Assembly: GCA_963788115.1 (NCBI GenBank)
Contig: CAWBFD010000002.1
Coordinates: 1,003,109 to 1,027,108, forward strand
DNA from: an uncultured Actinomycetes bacterium
Lineage (GTDB): Bacteria > Actinomycetota > Thermoleophilia > Solirubrobacterales > 70-9
Direction of reading: 5' to 3'
DNA: 24,000 nt
Part shown: piece by piece, positions 2,410 to 19,351 of the stretch
Numbering within the stretch: position 1 is the first letter of the stretch
How the letters are laid out: every line of letters begins with the position of its first letter
Notes under the pieces: model-generated
The model's input: only the letters and a program-made list of their open reading frames with translations
Told to the model about the DNA's origin: nothing
Databases searched by the model: none
Translations under genes and position numbers: made by a program

Positions 2410-3111
2410 TCACCGTCGGGCCCTTCCTCTTCCGACGCTGTGAATCACCGGATGAACGGTGATCCTGCGGCTGTAATCCATATGGACGCGGCGGACCGTG
2501 TAGGCACGCCATCCGGTCACCGTCACCGTATATGTCCAGTCGTTTCCACTGCGGCTCCAGTCCTTCGAGATCCGGCCTTGCGAGCAACATCCGAGGTATC
2601 CGCTCGCGCCGGTGTCGATACTGCGAGCATCCCCCGGAAGCTCGAAGTGATAATGGGCGATGGCGTAGCGACCACCCCAGCAGTCAAGCTGGAGCTCGCC
2701 ATAGAAGCCATCGAGGTAGCAAGGCCCCTGGCGGGATCGCGAATCGGTCTCGGTGCCGCTTCGCGTGCTGCTGTAGTGGCGCCACTGGTGGCGGGTGACG
2801 CGCTTATGGATTCCTCGGCAGGTCAGGTAGATGGGCTTCCCAGCGCGCGGCGTGCGGTAGCCAAAGCGGATCTTCGACGAGGAAAAGCGAGTCACCGGCC
2901 GGATCGATGTATAGGTTCGGGTTCCATCGTTCTTTAGTGCCCGCCCATGACAACTCCATCCGGAGCCGAACTTCCAACCATGCAGCGTTTCTGCTGTGAA
3001 CCCGAACGGGCCAATATTGGAAATGTTCAGCTCTTGGCCCGCGCTGGCGCTGCTAGCGCTCAGTGAGAGCGCCAGAAGAGTAAGGCCACAGGCAAGTACG
3101 GCCTTTTTCAC
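2410..3111 (-). CDS. Secreted Cys-containing protein of unknown function
   Basis: 233 aa. The GTG start overlaps the stop of the upstream gene (GTGA at 3108-3111). Signal peptide MKKAVLACGLTLLALSLSASSASA/GQE. The mature part has six Cys (SCHG, TCRG, PCYLDG, LDCWGG, GCCSQG). I recognise no domain. Confidence 0.7.
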   Translation of the reverse strand: MKKAVLACGLTLLALSLSASSASAGQELNISNIGPFGFTAETLHGWKFGSGWSCHGRALKNDGTRTYTSIRPVTRFSSSKIRFGYRTPRAGKPIYLTCRGIHKRVTRHQWRHYSSTRSGTETDSRSRQGPCYLDGFYGELQLDCWGGRYAIAHYHFELPGDARSIDTGASGYLGCCSQGRISKDWSRSGNDWTYTVTVTGWRAYTVRRVHMDYSRRITVHPVIHSVGRGRARR

Positions 3112-3743
3112 GCTACCTCCACTGTCGTAACTCGTTCTTCATGTAGGTCGACTGTTTGCGGGTCCCGGCGTCTGAACGCCAGCACCGCTGACAGAACGAC
3201 CATCGCTACGCCTGCGCCGAGCGTCAGGTAAATCCCCCAGCCCGGCTCAGCAATGTCGATCGTGCGTCCGAGAAGTTGCGCCGTGTCGTTATCCGAGATC
3301 TCCGATAGGACGCGAATGCTGTCGCCCGCGACGAACAGTCCGACGAGCAGCGGCCAGACCAATGCTCCTCGGGCTCGGGTCTTCGCAAAGGCCCATAGCG
3401 AGCCGAGCGCGGACAGTGCGCCGAGAATGAACCAGATGCCGTCCACGTCCATCCCGCTCTGGCTCACTAATGCGTTCGTGACCCACGGTCCGAACGACCC
3501 GACGATGATCCCCAAGATGGCGAGGCCCATCATCCAGAACTGACGAGGCTGTTCGGCCAGGACACCGACGATGCGGTTGGCCACGTCGTTGCCGGGCGCT
3601 TGAGCTGTGACCGTCTCGCCTTCGCGGCGATGGTCGGTCCAGCTCTCCCCATCCCACCAGCGTTCATCGCGCCCTTTGGGGTCGCGGTACCAGCCGGCTG
3701 CTGGCAGTTCGGTCATGTGTCCCACGTGCTCGTTCATGTGCAT
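3108..3743 (-). CDS. DUF2510-domain membrane protein
   Basis: The N-terminal AGWYRDPKGRDERWWDGESWTDH is the DUF2510 GWYPDP...RWWDG..WT motif. About four hydrophobic helices follow (FWMMGLAILGIIVGSFGPWV, GIWFILGALSALGSLWAF, ALVWPLLVGLFVAG, GWGIYLTLGAGVAMVVLSAVLAF). ATG 3743 has AAGG 7 nt upstream; ATG 3716 is an alternative start. Confidence 0.8.
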   Translation of the reverse strand: MHMNEHVGHMTELPAAGWYRDPKGRDERWWDGESWTDHRREGETVTAQAPGNDVANRIVGVLAEQPRQFWMMGLAILGIIVGSFGPWVTNALVSQSGMDVDGIWFILGALSALGSLWAFAKTRARGALVWPLLVGLFVAGDSIRVLSEISDNDTAQLLGRTIDIAEPGWGIYLTLGAGVAMVVLSAVLAFRRRDPQTVDLHEERVTTVEVA

Positions 3744-3814
3744 CTGATTGCCTTATCGGCAGTTCGCCGTCATACTTAAACGTATGCGGTCGAGTGCAGA
3801 CGCTCCGAGCAGAC

Positions 3815-3827
3815 ATGCGTCACGCAT
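3815..3827. promoter_or_regulatory. Perfect palindrome ATGCGT-c-ACGCAT, candidate operator in the divergent promoter region
   Basis: Read directly: atgcgtcacgcat at 3815-3827. A third TATGCG half-site lies at 3783-3788 and a CATAC-n6-GTATG inverted repeat at about 3771-3786. All sit in the 103-nt gap between the DUF2510 gene start (3743, minus) and the XRE start (3847, plus). Confidence 0.4.
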
Positions 3828-3846
3828 ATCGAATACAACTCCGGGC

Positions 3847-4168
3847 ATGGAGGCCGGGGAGGTTCCGCGTCCGTTTTTGCCCTGGCTGGGGCGCGCCTGT
3901 CGCCAGGCGCGCGAGGAGCGGGGGGTGGTCCAGGTGAGGATCGCGGCGGCGATCGAGGTAAACCAGGCGACGATCGCGCGGTTTGAGGACGGCAGCGCCT
4001 GGCCGCGGCGCCCCGAGGAGGTGCTTGATGGCCTACGCCAGCGAGCTCGACATGGACGTGCGCCTGATCTGGGTTCGCGCCCTGGTCATGTGGTTCGAGC
4101 ACGAGCCGGTCTTAGAGCAGGAGAGTCAGGAGCGGATTCGGGCGGCGCTCGAGCGGCTGCGGATCTAG
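3847..4168 (+). pseudogene. XRE-family helix-turn-helix regulator interrupted by a 1-nt frameshift near 4024-4030
   Basis: Frame 1 reads MEAGEVPRPFLPWLGRACRQAREERGVVQVRIAAAIEVNQATIARFEDGSAWPRRPEEVL. High GC3 then switches to frame 2, which reads MAYASELDMDVRLIWVRALVMWFEHEP...RLRI-stop at 4166-4168. Joined, the two pieces form one contiguous XRE HTH domain. Frame 1 downstream of 4027 has poor GC3 and an R/A-rich tail. Confidence 0.6.
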
Positions 4169-4196
4169 GGCGGGGGTCGATAGTGGGTCGGCTGCC

Positions 4197-4221
4197 GTCC
4201 GCTCAGGGCAGGCGGACATTT
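4197..4221 (+). terminator. Weak hairpin after the XRE gene: GTCCGC-n9-GCGGAC followed by ATTT
   Basis: Read directly: gtccgc at 4197-4202, gcggac at 4212-4217, attt at 4218-4221. The stem is only 6 bp and the T-run is short. Confidence 0.3.
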
Positions 4222-4427
4222 GCGCGAAGGTCCGGGGCCCGTGCGAGGCTCGTCGATCCCAATCCTCGTCTGCGGTCCGCGCGATGGTTGCGGTCCCGGT
4301 GAGAATCTCAATGAAGGGCTCGACCGGGAACCCACCTCCCTCCAGCCACTCGAAGGGTGAATGGGCCGTCGCGCGCCGGGAAACTCATCGCGGGGCCGTC
4401 GGGCTGCTGGACAGGCGGCGGGCCCGC

Positions 4428-6092
4428 TCAGACCGGTCGTGCGGCGCTTGCTGCCAAGCGGGTCTCGACCACCGTCTCCGCCTCGGCCGCACTCTCGCTG
4501 TAGCCGCTCACGGTGGGCACGAAGTGGCGTCGATCGAGCGCGTAGAGCGTCAGCGGCGTGCGCGCTCGGACCGTCGTGATGCGTGGGACATCGCGCAGCA
4601 GCGCGATCTCGCCGAAGGAATCGCCATCCGAGAGGAGGCTGAGCAGGCGCCCATTCTTCGTCACCTCGACCTCTCCGGAGACGATCACGTAGAAGCTGTC
4701 GCCCACCTGCCCCTGCTCGATCACGGTCCCGGCGGGCTCGATCGATTCCTCACGCACGTTACGGGCGAGATGCTCGATCGTGGAGACCGGCAGGGGCCGG
4801 AGCATCGTCACCTGGCGGAGGCGGTCGATGATGTCCGCCTGCGCGCCAAGCCCATCGTCCACCCTGACGAGGCGCGACCAGGCGAGGGCGACGACGGCAG
4901 GAGTCATCAGCCCGATTGCCACCAGCGCCCCCCTGATCCCGAAGAGGTAGATGAGAAGTGGCGTGATAATGGCCCCGAGGCCAACGGCGAGTGCCACCAG
5001 GCTCTCCAGCGCGCCGAACACCCGCGCCAGAATCTCATCGGGCATGAGGCGAGGGAACAGCGTGAAGTAGCCGAGATCCACCAGAGCGTTCCCGGCGCCC
5101 ACGATCGCGAGCATGACCAGGGCGATGAGCTCGGAGGGGAAGACCCCGATCATGGCGAGCGGCGTGCCCCAGAGCGCGATCCCCAGCCCTGTGTAGGCCG
5201 CGAGGCGTCGGCTCCCGACCAGGATCGAGGCTCCGAGCGATCCCACCACGGCGCCGACGCCGATGGCCGCCGTCAGGACGCCCACCCCCGAGTCCCCGGT
5301 CTCGAGGAGCTCGATGGCGACCACCACGGTGAACACGTTGAGCGCTCCCCGGGTCACCGCCTGGACCGCGCCCAAGCCGAACAGCATTGTCACATCGCGT
5401 TGTGCCGCGATCGCGCGTAGGCCCTCCGCGGTGTCGGCCGCAACCCGAATCGGGGCGGGCGGCGCCTCGCGCGGCGCGGGCTCGTAATCGATCAGGCTCA
5501 CCAAGAAGGCCGACCAGAGCGATAGCACCGCCGTAAGCACGAAGACCGCCTCGGGGCCGCGGACGTCGAGCAGCAACGCTGCGAGCAGGGGGCCGATGAG
5601 CGTGCTGGCGGAATCGAGCAGCCCCCGCGAAGCGTTCGCGGCGGTCAGCTCCTTCGGGGTCTCGCACAGCGCCGGCAGGAGCGCCGAGTGCGCGGGACGG
5701 AAGGCCGTGAACGGGATCGTCGCGATGACCGCGAGCAAATAGACGAAGACGACCGACAGATCCACGGCCATCACCACCGCGGCCGCCCCCACCGCGGCTG
5801 CCCGCATAACCCCGATCCAGATCAATACCCGATCGCGGCGAACGCGGTCGGCTACCGCCGTCGCGAATGGGGCGACAAGTGCCGAGGGGAGCATGCGGAT
5901 CAGCGCCACGATGCCGACGGCGGTAGCGCCCCCGTCCCGGAAAGCCACGACGCCCAGCGCGACCGTGAAGGACCACTCGGCCGCGTAGGCAGAGCCAAAG
6001 GCCAGCTGAGCGCGGCGCAGGTCCGGGCGGCGCAGGTTCGAGGCGAGCGCGGCGCCCCCCTCCGCCAACCGTCTTCCGACGGCGTCGATCAT
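4428..6092 (-). CDS. MFS transporter (EntS/MFS_3-like) with C-terminal cyclic-nucleotide-binding domain
   Basis: 554 aa. The first ~410 aa are hydrophobic with multiple (about 12) TM segments. The last ~130 aa form a CAP_ED-type CNB domain (GDSFYVIVSGEVEVTKNG...GDSFGEIALLRDVPRITTVRA...LYALDRRHF). Confidence 0.9.
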   Translation of the reverse strand: MIDAVGRRLAEGGAALASNLRRPDLRRAQLAFGSAYAAEWSFTVALGVVAFRDGGATAVGIVALIRMLPSALVAPFATAVADRVRRDRVLIWIGVMRAAAVGAAAVVMAVDLSVVFVYLLAVIATIPFTAFRPAHSALLPALCETPKELTAANASRGLLDSASTLIGPLLAALLLDVRGPEAVFVLTAVLSLWSAFLVSLIDYEPAPREAPPAPIRVAADTAEGLRAIAAQRDVTMLFGLGAVQAVTRGALNVFTVVVAIELLETGDSGVGVLTAAIGVGAVVGSLGASILVGSRRLAAYTGLGIALWGTPLAMIGVFPSELIALVMLAIVGAGNALVDLGYFTLFPRLMPDEILARVFGALESLVALAVGLGAIITPLLIYLFGIRGALVAIGLMTPAVVALAWSRLVRVDDGLGAQADIIDRLRQVTMLRPLPVSTIEHLARNVREESIEPAGTVIEQGQVGDSFYVIVSGEVEVTKNGRLLSLLSDGDSFGEIALLRDVPRITTVRARTPLTLYALDRRHFVPTVSGYSESAAEAETVVETRLAASAARPV

Positions 6093-13748: not shown

Positions 13749-15842
13749 CTAGCGGGTCCGCGCGACCTCGGCCGCGAACCAGACCGAGAGCCCGCCGGCG
13801 ACGCTGCGCAGTGCCCGCGAGAGCCGGGGGTCGATCCGGTCGGATGCGCTTGCCTGCGTCGCGGCAACCCAGGTCAGACCCGCGCCCAGCCCGAGCGCCA
13901 CCGCGCGTCCTGCGCGCACGACTTTCTGCTCGAGCCGGGCCGAGGTGAACTTGACCTCGAGCTGCCGCCCCGGCCGGCCGCCGACGACGGTCGCCAGGCC
14001 GTCGGAGACCTGGCTTGCCCGGTAGCGCAGCCGCTCCACCTCGTAGATGATCTGCTGTGGATCCAGGCGCCCGGCCAGCCGCCGGGAGATGCTGCGCAGG
14101 AAGAAACGCCGCGCCTCCTCGATCGGGTCGAGCTCCGGGGCGAGCTCGGAAACCGCGCCGTCGACCTGGGCCAGCGCCTTGCCGACCATGACGAAAGCGG
14201 GCGGCAAGGGCACTCCGTGGCGAACCGAGATCGCCGTGAGCTGGTTGAGCAGCTCGACCAGGTTGAGATCTTGGAGTGGGCGACCACGGATCTCGGCGAC
14301 CACGGCCGCGATGTCGTTGCGATAGTCCTCGACATCGACGTCGGTGGCGTCCGCCACAGCACCCAGATCGAGCGAGACATCGGCGAGCAGATCGACGTCG
14401 CCCTGTGCGAAGGCGAGCAAAACGAGGAACAGCTGGCGGCGCGTCTGGCCCTCCAGGCGGCCGACCATGCCCAGGTCGAGCAGCCAGATCCTGTTGTCGG
14501 CCCAGAGCATGTTGCCCGGGTGGGGGTCGGCATGGAAGAAGCCGTCCTCGAGGACCTGCTTGTAGTAGGCCTGGATCAGCTGACGCGCCGCCTCGGTGCG
14601 TTCCGGGCCCTCCGGGGCATCGAGCAGCGGAACCGCGTCGACGATCTCATCCATGACCAACAGGCGCGCGGTCGAGAGCTCCCGGTGACAGCGCGGGACG
14701 CCGATGCGGTCATAGCCGGCGACGATCTCGCCCATGCGGACCATGTTGCGCGCCTCCTCGCCGAAGTCGAGCTCGTCGCGAAGCGCGCTCGAAACCTGCT
14801 GGGCGAGCGACGGGATGTCGATGATCCGGTTTAACCGCTGCGAGCGCGACGCAGGCCTGATGATCATCTCGAGCAGCGCGAGGTCGTTCTCGACCACCTC
14901 CTCGGCCTCGGGGCGCTGGACTTTGACCACCACGCGGTGGCCGTCGGCCATTCGCGCCCGATGCACCTGGGCGATCGTCCCTGCGGCGAGCGGCTCGGGA
15001 TCGAGCGAGGAGAAGACGTCCTCCCAGGGAACGGCGAGCTCGCGCTCCATCATCGACACGACCTCCGCCTCGGACATCGGCGGAACGTCCGACTGCAGGG
15101 CGGCGAGCTCGGCGACGTACTCCTCGGAGATCAGGTCGGGACGCGTCGAGAGGACCTGGCCGAGCTTGCCGAAGGTCGGTCCCAGACTCTCGAACGCCTC
15201 CCGCAGCCGCCGCGGCCCGTCCGGGTCACCCTCGAGGCGGAGCAGCCGCCCGGAGAGCTGGCGGATCCCGACCGGACCGAGGACGCGGCTGATCTCGCGC
15301 GCCCGGGCGTGCAGCCGACCCGAGTCGAGGGTTCCCTCGGACGCCGGCTCGCCGGTGGTCGTGTTGACGACCACCACCGTGCAGTCGGCGAGATGGGTGA
15401 CGCGATTGGCGATGTTGCCGAGCAGGAACTGCTTGCGACCGCGCATACCCGAGCTGCCGACGACGACGACGTCGGCGTCGGCCTCTCGGGCGGCGGCGAG
15501 GATCACCGTTGCCACGTCCTCGCCCGACTCGACCACGGCGCGGGCGCGGATCCCGTCGGTGGGCAGGGAGCGCTCGAGCGCCGCGCGCAGCCGCGCATGC
15601 GCGGCCTCGTCCGGGGCCGGTGCGGCCGGCTCCGACCCGGCCTCTGGTACGCCGTTCTCGGCGGCGGCATCCATCGCAACCGATTCGGGCTTCGAGGCGG
15701 GCTTGACCACCTGGATCGCGAGCAGCTCCGCGCCCGTCGACCTGGCAAAGCTCGCCGCCCATTCGACCGCGAGCGCGGCTCCGGCGCTGCCGTCGGTAGC
15801 TACCGCGACCAGGCTCGTTTCTGCACCCATCGAAGCGAGCAT
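13749..15842 (-). CDS. Universal-stress-protein domain fused to an ABC1/UbiB-family atypical kinase, with two C-terminal TM helices
   Basis: USP part: LVAVATDGSAGAALAVEWA...DVVVVGSSGMRGRKQFLLGNIANRVTHLADCTVVVV. UbiB part: LGPTFGKLGQVLSTRPDLISEEYVAELAALQSDVPP, AAGTIAQVHRARM, VVVKVQRP, DELDFGEEARN, FFHADPHPGNMLW. Start set at ATG 15842 (ATG 15830 is also possible). The ORF extension to 16049 is R-rich and overlaps the upstream gene. Confidence 0.85.
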   Translation of the reverse strand: MLASMGAETSLVAVATDGSAGAALAVEWAASFARSTGAELLAIQVVKPASKPESVAMDAAAENGVPEAGSEPAAPAPDEAAHARLRAALERSLPTDGIRARAVVESGEDVATVILAAAREADADVVVVGSSGMRGRKQFLLGNIANRVTHLADCTVVVVNTTTGEPASEGTLDSGRLHARAREISRVLGPVGIRQLSGRLLRLEGDPDGPRRLREAFESLGPTFGKLGQVLSTRPDLISEEYVAELAALQSDVPPMSEAEVVSMMERELAVPWEDVFSSLDPEPLAAGTIAQVHRARMADGHRVVVKVQRPEAEEVVENDLALLEMIIRPASRSQRLNRIIDIPSLAQQVSSALRDELDFGEEARNMVRMGEIVAGYDRIGVPRCHRELSTARLLVMDEIVDAVPLLDAPEGPERTEAARQLIQAYYKQVLEDGFFHADPHPGNMLWADNRIWLLDLGMVGRLEGQTRRQLFLVLLAFAQGDVDLLADVSLDLGAVADATDVDVEDYRNDIAAVVAEIRGRPLQDLNLVELLNQLTAISVRHGVPLPPAFVMVGKALAQVDGAVSELAPELDPIEEARRFFLRSISRRLAGRLDPQQIIYEVERLRYRASQVSDGLATVVGGRPGRQLEVKFTSARLEQKVVRAGRAVALGLGAGLTWVAATQASASDRIDPRLSRALRSVAGGLSVWFAAEVARTR

Positions 15843-16005
15843 AGGTCGGCTGCGGGGCGGGCGCAATAACGGGCGGTCCGTGGGCGCGGCTGGTTCCGAA
15901 GCAACGACCTCTCGCGTGTGACTCGTCCGCGGAGGCAGCGAGACGTGATTACTGAGGATCGGGCGTTCTTGGTCGGCCAGGAGTCGATGAGCGGCCGCCG
16001 CAAGC

Positions 16006-16548
16006 CTACGGCCGGAAGACCGCCTGCGCCGAGCCGTCAGGGAACCCACTCGGGAGGCGCCGGAAGGCGGCGAGCAGCCGCCCCGCGATCGCGACCGCGA
16101 ACCCGAATACCGCGGCGAGCACCACGGCCTCCGCCGGCCCGTCGCTGCGGATCAGCGCCAGCCCCGCGATCGCGGCCGCGAGCACGATGAGCACGACGCA
16201 GACGCCGCGGTGGAATCGCCCCGCTTCGGAGTGCGGCCACGGATCGAGCGCGCGTGTGATCTGGCGCCCGCGCTCGGAGTCCGTGCACTCGGGCTTCGCG
16301 GGGCAGGCGTTGCAGACGGCCGGGCGGGCGCGATAATGGGCGAGGCGCCGGCTGTGATCGGTGTCGATCCGGTGCAGCTCCTGGCCCTCCGGGCATTCCC
16401 AGAGGTCGAGGTCGGGCCGGAAGGTGAACCCCGCGGTGCGGTAGCGAGCGCTGCGGCGGTGCGAATGGCGCGCGAGTAGGTCGAGCCCGGTCGCGGCGAG
16501 CATCAGGAACACCGCGTAGCCGGTGGCGAGGATGGCCTCGGCGCTCAT
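16006..16548 (-). CDS. Membrane protein with a four-Cys zinc-ribbon-like module; unknown function, translationally coupled to the NO reductase gene
   Basis: 180 aa. ATG 16548 overlaps the norB stop (ATGA). One N-terminal and two C-terminal hydrophobic helices flank FTFRPDLDLWECPEGQELHRIDTDHSRRLAHYRARPAVCNACPAKPECTDSERGRQITR (C-x26-C-x2-C-x5-C). Confidence 0.7.
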   Translation of the reverse strand: MSAEAILATGYAVFLMLAATGLDLLARHSHRRSARYRTAGFTFRPDLDLWECPEGQELHRIDTDHSRRLAHYRARPAVCNACPAKPECTDSERGRQITRALDPWPHSEAGRFHRGVCVVLIVLAAAIAGLALIRSDGPAEAVVLAAVFGFAVAIAGRLLAAFRRLPSGFPDGSAQAVFRP

Positions 16549-18881
16549 CGCGGGGGTTCTGAGGCTCGCATCTGGGTGACGGCCGCCGCGGTCTCGGGGG
16601 CCGGTGCGGTGATCTCGGTGAACAGGACCTCGGCGTCCTCGGGAGTGGTGCGCTTGACGCGGTGGCGGACGCCGAGGTAGCAGATGTAGAGCAGCGGCAA
16701 GACGCCGCCGGCGATGAAGAGAATGTCACCGGGCAGGCGGATCCATTCGATCAGCGAGTTCGTGTCGTTGGTGAGGAACTCGAGCGAGCGGGCCTGGTAG
16801 TAGCCGGCGTCGACCGACTCATAGAGCTGGATCAACCCGAGCGGGAGGAGGGTCGCGAACGTCATCCAAGCCAGCCCGATGTTGAGCGACCAGAAACTGA
16901 TCTTGGCGAGCCGATCCGGCCATCGGTCATCGGGGATCAGGTATCGCAGGCAGAACAGCGCCAGGCCGACGGCGAGCATTCCGTAGACGCCCATCATCGC
17001 CGCGTGGCCGTGGTTGGCCGTCAGCGCGGTCCCGATCTCGTAGTAGGAGACGATCGGCAGGTTGATCAGGAAGCCGAAGATCCCGGCGCCGAGGAAGTTC
17101 CAAAACCCCACCGCGACCAAGAACATCACGGCCCAGCGGTGCGGGAAGGGAGTCGCCGAGCGGCCCTCCTGACGCGCGCCGAGCTGGAGGAAGCTCCACG
17201 CCTCGACGGTCAGGAAGGTGAGCGGGATCACCTCGGCGGCCGAGAACACGGCCCCCAGGGCCATGTGCTCGGCGGGCTCACCGGAGAAGTAGAGGTGGTG
17301 CATCGTCCCGATCACCCCGCCCACCGAGTACAGGAGGATGTCGAGGAAGACGACGGTCAGGGCGACCCGCTCGCGCACCACGCCGAGCAGGACGAACACG
17401 TACGCGACCATCACCGTGGTGAACAGCTCGAGGAAGTCCTCGACCCACAGGTGCACCACCCAGAAGCGCCAGAAGTCGGTGACCGTGAAGCTGTCACCCT
17501 GGCGGGCGATCAGCCCGACCGCGTAGAACGCGGGGATCGCGAGCGCCGCGAAGAAGAACAGCCACGGCAGGTTGCCCCGGCTCTCGCGCGCGAGCCGCCC
17601 ACGCAGCGCCCGGAAGATGATCGCCGCCCAGAAGAACAGCCCGATCACGAGCAGGACCTGCCAGAAGCGCCCGAGGTCGAGGTACTCGAAGCCCTGGAGG
17701 CCGAAGATGGAGCCCTCGTCCCCGAACCAGCCGTGCACGCCGCCGAACTCACCGATCAGGCTGCCGAAGACGACGATCGCCAGCGCTGCGAGAAGCCCGT
17801 AGGCGAGCCAGTGCTGTCGCCGCGGCTCGCGCCCCGTGATCATCGGCGCGAGGAAGATCCCGGCCGCGAGGAACGACGTCGAGACGAAGAAGATCGCGAG
17901 CTGGACGTGGAAGGTGCGAGCGAGGTTGAAGGGGAGGACCTGGGCCAGGTCGATCCCGAAGAAGTCGCCGAGTTCGGCCCGGTAGTGCTGTGAGGCGGCG
18001 CCGACCATCGTCTGGATCAGGAACAGCGCCGCCATCACGAGGAAGAACCAAGCGCAGGCCTTCTGCGCGGGGGTCAGCGCAACCTCCCCGGGTCGGCGGA
18101 AGGTGAGCGTGGCCTGCTCGCGCCCGTGCCAGCCGAGGACGTTCCAGCGCCCGAAGGCTGCGAACAGCAGGCCGATGCCGCCGAGCAGCGCGATCAGCGA
18201 GACGACGCTCCAGAGCACGACGTTCGCCGTCGGGCCGTTGTCGACCAGCTCCTCGGGCGGCCAGTTGTTCGTATACGAGTAGTTGTGGCCCGGCCGGCGT
18301 GCCGCCGCTGCCCACGCCGACCATGAGAAGAAGGCGGTCAGCTCGTGCGCTTGCTCCGGATTGTCGATCGCGTCGGGCCGCAGCCCCTGGTCGGTCGTCG
18401 GGTTCGAGAAGTAGTCCGCGTAGTGGCGCTCGAGCTCCGCGAACGCTTCGGCCTGCGGTCCGGTATAGGTGAGGGTGTCGGTCTGCTCGTCGTAGCGATT
18501 CGCCTGGAACTCGGCGATCGTCTGCTCGCGGGCCCGGTCGGACCCGCCCTCGCGGTATTGGCGCTCGACCGATTCCGCGGCGCGATGGAGGTAGTCGGCC
18601 GTGTAGTCGGGCCCGAGGTAGGCGCCGTGGCCGAAGATCGAGCCGTACTCCATCAGCCCGTTGTTCAGGAAGACCTTCTGGCCGCGGCTGACGTCCTCGC
18701 CGGTGAAGAGGGTCTGGCCCTCGGGGTCGACCACGCGCTCGGGGATCGGGGGGTCGGCGCTGTAGGTCCTGTAAGCGAGGAGGCCGAGGACGAAGAAGCC
18801 GAGGAGGAAGACGACGATCGAAGCCTGGACCCAGGTCTTCGAGACCAGGAGCTCCCGCCGTCGCGGGCTCTCGTCCGCCAT
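16545..18881 (-). CDS. norB: Quinol-dependent nitric-oxide reductase (qNOR), large fused subunit
   Basis: 778 aa, the size typical of qNOR. There is an N-terminal TM helix plus periplasmic extension, then a heme-copper-oxidase-like 12-TM core with His ligand motifs (HVQLAIFF, WVVHLWVE, GTMHHLYFSG, HGHAAMMGVYG). Confidence 0.93.
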   Translation of the reverse strand: MADESPRRRELLVSKTWVQASIVVFLLGFFVLGLLAYRTYSADPPIPERVVDPEGQTLFTGEDVSRGQKVFLNNGLMEYGSIFGHGAYLGPDYTADYLHRAAESVERQYREGGSDRAREQTIAEFQANRYDEQTDTLTYTGPQAEAFAELERHYADYFSNPTTDQGLRPDAIDNPEQAHELTAFFSWSAWAAAARRPGHNYSYTNNWPPEELVDNGPTANVVLWSVVSLIALLGGIGLLFAAFGRWNVLGWHGREQATLTFRRPGEVALTPAQKACAWFFLVMAALFLIQTMVGAASQHYRAELGDFFGIDLAQVLPFNLARTFHVQLAIFFVSTSFLAAGIFLAPMITGREPRRQHWLAYGLLAALAIVVFGSLIGEFGGVHGWFGDEGSIFGLQGFEYLDLGRFWQVLLVIGLFFWAAIIFRALRGRLARESRGNLPWLFFFAALAIPAFYAVGLIARQGDSFTVTDFWRFWVVHLWVEDFLELFTTVMVAYVFVLLGVVRERVALTVVFLDILLYSVGGVIGTMHHLYFSGEPAEHMALGAVFSAAEVIPLTFLTVEAWSFLQLGARQEGRSATPFPHRWAVMFLVAVGFWNFLGAGIFGFLINLPIVSYYEIGTALTANHGHAAMMGVYGMLAVGLALFCLRYLIPDDRWPDRLAKISFWSLNIGLAWMTFATLLPLGLIQLYESVDAGYYQARSLEFLTNDTNSLIEWIRLPGDILFIAGGVLPLLYICYLGVRHRVKRTTPEDAEVLFTEITAPAPETAAAVTQMRASEPPR

Positions 18882-18916: not shown

Positions 18917-19351
18917 TCAGGCGGCCTCGGCCGCCGAGAGCCGGCGGCCGAGCGAGGCGAGCGCGTCCGGCTCGAGGGTGCGCTCGATGAGCGGGAAGAG
19001 CACGCGCTCCTCGTGGCGGACGTGCGCGGCGAGCCGCTTCCCGAGCTCGTGCAGGCCGGCCAGATTCAGCTCGCCCGCGGCCAGGCGGGCCATCCGCTCG
19101 CGGATCCAGACGTGATCGGTGAGCACGGTCACGACGGCATCGTCGGTCGGGTCGCCGACGGCGGCGAACGCGGGCAGCAGTACCTCCTCCTCGATCCGGA
19201 AGTGCTTGGCGCCGTGCTCATCCCAGAACATGAGGACGCCGTCTCGCACCTCGGCGAGGTCGTCGGCGCTCGCCCGCTGCATCAGCATCGCGCGGTAGAG
19301 GGCTTGATGGTGGTCGTGCGAGAGCTCTACCAGCGCTTGGTCCCGCTTCAT
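18917..19351 (-). CDS. Hemerythrin (HHE cation-binding) domain protein, NorA/ScdA/YtfE-like di-iron protein
   Basis: 144 aa from ATG 19351. His/Glu-rich helices: LSHDHHQAL, WDEHGAKHFRIEEEVLLP, HVRHEERVLFPLIE. It lies 35 nt upstream of the qNOR gene. The upstream ORF extension to 19783 is Arg-rich and not protein-like. Confidence 0.8.
   Translation of the reverse strand: MKRDQALVELSHDHHQALYRAMLMQRASADDLAEVRDGVLMFWDEHGAKHFRIEEEVLLPAFAAVGDPTDDAVVTVLTDHVWIRERMARLAAGELNLAGLHELGKRLAAHVRHEERVLFPLIERTLEPDALASLGRRLSAAEAA

Follow-up and report, generated by a model that had tools for sequence, protein, structure and literature searches.

[quoted passage not shown] In the literature, qNOR counts as an enzyme with one gene and one subunit that works unaided and is encoded in a cluster containing norZ only (PMC12067857). 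It is reported to gain its non-haem iron, FeB, without chaperones, possibly via a water-filled cytoplasmic 'K-analog' channel, and it can lose FeB or take zinc instead (PMC12067857). For cNOR, FeB insertion is assisted by the chaperones NorQ and NorD, which are operon-encoded helpers at the cytoplasmic face of the reductase, and the cNOR of Thermus has a lineage-specific extra subunit, NorH, that is helpful but not essential (PMC12067857).

We describe here a partner gene of qNOR in many soil bacteria, called X, which derives from a transposon and is new to the literature. Like NorH, NorE/NorF, CcoQ and CyoD, which are small accessory subunits of enzymes of the haem-copper oxidase type, X encodes a small membrane protein in the operon of a catalytic subunit, but searches with Pfam and NCBIfam revealed no sequence similarity between X and any of these proteins. 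We know of no report of a cytoplasmic Cys4 domain in NorH, NorE/NorF, CcoQ or CyoD. NorQ and NorD would be like X in the role that we propose below, but they are soluble AAA+ and VWA proteins unrelated to it. The cysteine motif of X is itself known from IS1182 transposases; in the open literature, our searches turned up neither an account of X nor one of the metal in IS1182 transposases.

A small membrane protein gene overlaps norB

The analysis was made on a stretch of 24,000 nucleotides, referred to as the window. The features of the locus, in window coordinates, are as follows.

16006..16548, minus strand: X, norB-coupled inner-membrane protein, open reading frame of 180 amino acids (~2,639 homologues of similar length)
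16545..16548, minus strand: ATGA overlap of the X start codon (ATG) with the norB stop codon (TGA), read in the sequence; translational coupling
16545..18881, minus strand: qNOR (NorB/NorZ), 778 amino acids (Pfam NorB_cytochrome_c-like and COX1)
18917..19351, minus strand: hemerythrin-like gene, 5' of norB (Pfam Hemerythrin, E 4e-13)
16468..16536, minus strand: transmembrane (TM) helix 1 of X, residues about 5-27 (helix at residues 3-37 in the AF2 model)
16204..16467, minus strand: predicted cytoplasmic soluble domain of X, residues 28-115 (homology and AF2 fold), with the transposase-homologous core at about residues 33-106 (16231-16452)
16393..16395, minus strand: Cys52 (in CPEG), candidate first metal ligand, invariant in 41 family members and 8 transposase domains
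16285..16314, minus strand: Cys79-x2-Cys82-x5-Cys88 (CNACPAKPEC), with C79 and C82 invariant and C88 conserved in at least 90% of the family
16150..16203, minus strand: TM helix 2 of X, residues about 116-133 (AF2 helix at residues 108-134)
16063..16128, minus strand: TM helix 3 of X, residues about 141-162 (AF2 helix at residues 138-163; charge counts)

A preliminary description of this DNA, made from the letters alone, had quoted a stretch of 60 residues with a cysteine motif, and this stretch was recovered letter for letter as residues 41-100 of X (16249-16428). The ATGA-coupled start claimed there is also present: the plus-strand letters at 16545-16548 are tcat, and the minus strand accordingly has ATGA. 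The best solved relative of the 778-residue NorB is the Geobacillus qNOR 3AYF (543 bits). X is closely packed between norB and the next gene, and the rest of a transposase has left no remnants there. The next gene, 3' of X (13749-16049, minus strand), encodes a fusion of Usp and an ABC1/UbiB kinase; with the GTG at 16049 as its start, as listed, it would overlap with the last part of X, which makes a true start further downstream probable. Among 80 genome loci this fusion gave weak matches in the Usp region only, in two of them, and it is no conserved neighbour of the cassette.

The AF2 model of whole X has a mean pLDDT of 90.9. It shows TM1 followed by a small, beta-rich soluble domain, in which two short helices bear C79, C82 and C88, and then a TM2/TM3 hairpin, an arrangement that agrees with the earlier placement of the motif between hydrophobic helices of a norB-coupled protein. 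In 41 X homologues the count of K+R is 0.2 for the N-terminus and 3.9 for the segment after TM1; because of the positive-inside rule, the cysteine domain is predicted to be cytoplasmic together with a basic C-terminal tail, and a short acidic N-terminus and a short acidic TM2-TM3 loop are predicted to lie outside.

The X gene is conserved over its whole length. A protein search in 5.8 billion sequences yielded 2,639 homologues of similar length, and the top 120 among the matches listed were 55-91% identical to X along most of the X sequence. An exhaustive search of 50%-identity representatives gave 286 clusters at E<=1e-10, and full-length homologues reach down to about 32-35% identity with the three hydrophobic helices and the four cysteines kept. 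For 16 orthologues, dN/dS was 0.22 in the cysteine domain, 0.43 in TM1 and 0.57 in TM2-3. No inverted repeats flanking X and no plasmid copies of X were found, and a search of the window's genome with the IS1182 transposase model returned the X reading frame as its sole match and no true IS1182 transposase. Full-length homologues, purifying selection and the absence of inverted repeats all argue for a domesticated module, as had been suggested, and not for debris of an insertion sequence.

The cysteine domain of X descends from IS1182-family transposases

The resemblance to the cysteine motif of IS1182-type transposases, first recognised in the sequence alone, was recovered with three profiles. 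Pfam DDE_Tnp_1_6 (PF13751) matched residues 52-99 of X on profile positions 2-53 of 125 with E 6.8e-6 and 26.8 bits, which is above the gathering cut-off of 25.1 bits, so that the comparison with Pfam transposase families proposed as a check gave a significant similarity. The NCBIfam model of the IS1182 transposase (NF033551) matched residues 28-106 on positions 345-422 of 488 (E 2.3e-12, 46.6 bits). In the reverse direction, a profile of the X family built from 41 members matched ten IS1182-type transposase-like frames of the same phylum with 38-75 bits, over residues of about 33-109. Two of these ten frames (L017 and L018) are bona fide IS1182 transposases, scoring 340 and 318 bits where the cut-off is 270.

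In the bona fide transposases the cysteine domain is found at about residues 345-430, downstream of DUF772 and inside the span of DDE_Tnp_1 (261-480); the counterpart of X is therefore only a sub-domain inserted in the catalytic region. Both DDE_Tnp_1 and DUF772/HTH were sought in X with Pfam and gave no match, whereas both were found in L017 and L018, and the early observation that X has no DDE domain thus holds. A joint alignment of X homologues and eight transposase domains has F41, C52, Y72, C79, C82, C88 and R95 as invariant positions, with high conservation of K85, T89 and G94 as well. The spacing of the cysteines is C-x26-C-x2-C-x5-C in the X family, and C-x(26-30)-C-x2-C-x5-C is common to X and the IS1182 transposases.

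These results show that the cytoplasmic domain of X (~75 residues) has its origin in IS1182-family transposases, namely in their insertion sub-domain with the cysteines. Only that sub-domain was kept and grafted between TM helices; the HTH and the parts that carry the catalytic D, D and E are gone. X shares with the IS1182 transposases (NF033551) the F, Y and R residues and all four cysteines, within residues of about 33-106, but it is not a member of their family. Its 46.6 bits stand against a cut-off of 270 and cover part of the profile, and three TM helices flank the domain. IS1182 transposases have DUF772/HTH, a D-D-E core and inverted repeats, and X is without all three. Unlike the mobile IS1182 elements, X occurs once in its own genome, and its place is syntenic and tied to norB.

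One candidate homologue was rejected. P0265, a WD40/NB-ARC repeat protein of 1598 amino acids, matches residues 37-71 of X fifteen times, a spurious, repeat-driven match; the beta-hairpin part of the motif is not specific by itself.

norB and X form a conserved two-gene cassette

The genomic context of X was studied in a scan with one genome per species, which yielded 328 encoding loci, the best 80 of which were examined. These 80 loci belong to Solirubrobacterales, Thermoleophilaceae, Gaiellaceae, Rubrobacter and relatives, and one Nocardia. In all of the best 80, norB is immediately upstream of X on the same strand. After crude gene calling and clustering of the neighbours, norB proved to be the sole conserved one, with 77 of 78 loci, and the next cluster occurred in at most 16, at scattered positions. 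The norB stop codon mostly falls between 4 nt past the X start, which gives an overlap, and ~25 nt before it, although these gap values are approximate in part, some X starts having been set by alignment.

An independent scan of metagenome contigs was made with a query from a distant X sub-clade that is about 35-40% identical to the protein of the window. It yielded 80 loci with a GC content of 39-74%, and norB was directly upstream in 75 of the 78 that had enough upstream sequence. Of the three exceptions, L165 has a norB with a poorly aligned tail, and L156 and L177 are genuine orphans. Such orphan X-like genes are rare; they lie at L156:1556-1939 and at L177:1425-2132, where a phosphoketolase gene follows. 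Overall, the two genes are adjacent in 155 of 158 testable loci over a GC range of 39-74%, and the survey of norB against IS linkage that had been proposed earlier thus turned out almost entirely in favour of norB.

A sample of 301 genomes of the phylum contained nine with such a qNOR, and X was directly downstream in eight of them. The ninth, G089, has a qNOR but no X, and a convergent gene comes next; qNOR thus does not strictly require X. At that locus (L102; G089:C17:21000-29000), norB at 2500-4785 encodes a close qNOR (66% identical) from the same class, and the convergent gene behind it encodes 652 amino acids. The locus offers a natural comparison without X.

Pairwise distances of NorB and X are correlated (r=0.86; none of 999 permutations as high), and the divergence of X is ~1.8 times that of NorB. 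The data show that norB and X form a conserved two-gene cassette that is translationally coupled and co-inherited. X occurs in no fewer than 328 species genomes, among them Thermoleophilia, Rubrobacteria and some Actinomycetes, and its range probably extends further, since the linked loci span GC contents of 39-74%. A metagenome contig of 1271 nt (L115) carries a norB-X junction at only 39% GC and probably represents a cassette far outside the high-GC Actinomycetota. Rows of the ESM Atlas hint at X in Planctomycetota and Verrucomicrobiota.

A candidate metal site with four cysteines

X is a candidate metal-binding protein on the basis of its four conserved cysteines. The preliminary description had called the motif a zinc ribbon, a name that found no support in the analyses made here. 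A classical zinc ribbon consists of two beta-hairpin knuckles, each with a CxxC that provides two zinc ligands. The first turn of X (CPEG) bears one cysteine, and the remaining three are located in short helical segments as C-x2-C-x5-C. Searches with the whole X model gave no match in Foldseek and generic helical bundles only in VIA-align, driven by the three TM helices. For the model of the domain (mean pLDDT 76), Foldseek gave no match and the best VIA-align Z was 3.8, with no clear solved fold, and a sequence search of the PDB with the X-family profile found nothing.

In AddB and Dna2, one distal cysteine together with CX2CX5C binds the [4Fe-4S] cluster of the 'iron staple' (PMC3439918). 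Because the distal cysteine and the CX2CX5C of X equal this pattern, an Fe-S cluster is a serious alternative to zinc. The iron staples of AddB, Dna2 and Cas4 nucleases have this ligand spacing (PMC3439918), and the domain of X is likewise of DNA-processing ancestry, but no homology in sequence or fold was detected between X and the iron-staple proteins, so that the likeness is in ligand spacing only.

Proposed role of X and alternative readings

We infer that X is probably a dedicated accessory subunit or assembly factor of qNOR with a putative cytoplasmic metal centre. X would be produced in step with NorB and would dock to NorB in the membrane through its helix bundle. Docking would put the Cys4 metal centre, whether a structural zinc or an Fe-S cluster, on the cytoplasmic side of qNOR, at the opening of the water-filled 'K-analog' channel, and X could then stabilise qNOR, or help or guard the entry of the non-haem FeB. 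On this side, a metal-binding domain would be well placed for stabilising the enzyme or for assisting or guarding the FeB route. Small subunits confined to one lineage have a precedent in NorH of Thermus cNOR (PMC12067857). Counting against this proposal, the solved qNORs of Geobacillus, Neisseria and Alcaligenes function without such a partner (PMC12067857; 3AYF search), G089 has a qNOR without X, and the X-like genes of L156 and L177 are away from norB.

A near-obligate second gene behind norB is a concrete candidate for how such qNORs are assembled, metallated or controlled. X further gives a clean example, among prokaryotes, of a membrane protein with a place in energy and stress metabolism that took no more than one sub-domain from a transposase.

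A different role, which we consider rather unlikely, would be that of an NO- or redox-sensing Fe-S protein, in which a [4Fe-4S] cluster reacts with NO or relays electrons. Instead of being a passive structural subunit, X would in this way act on qNOR by gating or tuning it, or would give a signal of NO stress. The pattern C-x26-C-x2-C-x5-C, which is kept in the family and in the eight transposase domains and equals the iron staple of AddB and Dna2 (PMC3439918), is consistent with such a sensor, as are the departure from a classical zinc ribbon with two CxxC, the outcome of the Foldseek and VIA-align searches, which gave no clear match to a solved fold, and the NO-stress setting of the operon, where hemerythrin, Rrf2/NsrR-like regulators and cytochrome bd recur nearby. 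Cys4 sites of similar spacing can, however, bind zinc, a dedicated NO sensor of the Rrf2 family is already present beside norB in some loci, and translational coupling to NorB suits a stoichiometric subunit better than a regulator.

A joint reading goes further: the Cys4 site would hold a [4Fe-4S] cluster, the IS1182 transposases would be unrecognised Fe-S enzymes, and a large clade of qNORs would be two-subunit enzymes with a transposon-derived partner. This combination is speculative and quite unlikely to hold as a whole; if it were true, an NO-reactive or redox-active cluster would sit where the proton/metal channel of qNOR opens to the cytoplasm.

X could also have a function independent of qNOR, for example as a membrane stress protein that merely shares an NO-stress operon. 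The qNOR of G089 without X, the X-like genes of L156 and L177 without norB, and the SPFH/Band-7 gene that follows X in a subset of loci would fit this idea. We nevertheless regard it as very unlikely, given the adjacency in 155 of 158 loci across GC contents of 39-74%, the conserved overlap of stop and start, the correlated divergence of the two proteins, and the variation of all other neighbours.

It is highly improbable that X is a membrane-tethered, nucleic-acid-binding regulator that has retained the DNA binding of the transposase, for example for control of norB or for tethering of DNA or RNA. Transposase residues other than the cysteines are indeed kept, with F41, Y72 and R95 invariant and K85, T89 and G94 highly conserved, but the domain is about charge-neutral (K+R 9.6 against D+E 9.0), X is without the HTH (DUF772) part of the transposase, and a regulator would not usually be encoded behind norB in ATGA coupling. 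The idea that X is an artefact of gene calling or a decayed piece of IS1182, to which its sole database annotation as 'Transposase DDE domain' might point, is refuted by the conservation and synteny data: there are no transposase remnants, no inverted repeats and no IS1182 transposase in the genome, and conservation extends over the entire protein with its TM helices down to 32% identity, with dN/dS of 0.22-0.57.

Annotation and neighbouring genes

Neither Pfam nor NCBIfam has a model for the X family itself, and the sources label it as 'hypothetical protein' or 'Transposase DDE domain'. The latter label inflates counts of insertion sequences and hides a possible marker gene for the X-linked clade of qNORs.

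Genes related to NO stress (hemerythrin, Rrf2/NsrR-like regulators, cytochrome bd and CydDC) are recurrent around the cassette in subsets of loci but are not universal. The hemerythrin homologue was found near norB-X in 13 of 80 genome loci and is thus a local, non-conserved neighbour. In 10 loci of the Rubrobacter type, which include L050:3075-3542, L040, L052, L059, L062, L069, L070 and L074, norB is directly preceded by a gene for an Rrf2-family (NsrR-like) regulator in the same orientation, and genes for CydA (cytochrome bd) and CydDC-like ABC proteins are located downstream in several loci of this type.

Apparent fusions were not retained as evidence. Proteins in which X seems fused to Band_7 (P0273, P0274, P0285, P0291 and P0292) appear to be merged, as the two are adjacent open reading frames in different frames in L096 and L091. 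NorB-X fusions, considered as Rosetta-stone evidence, are singletons with partial COX1 coverage before X and are probably frameshifted genes of MAGs.

In a subset of loci, an SPFH/Band-7 (stomatin-like) gene directly follows X, giving the order norB-X-SPFH; examples are L096:6540-7304 (Nocardia sp. CA-151230), L091:6560-7367, L061, L172, L143 and L154. A tandem duplication of norB-X was observed in G258:C17:17635-23993 (L013, L002) and in L069, and in each case both of the two norB genes are followed by a copy of X of their own.
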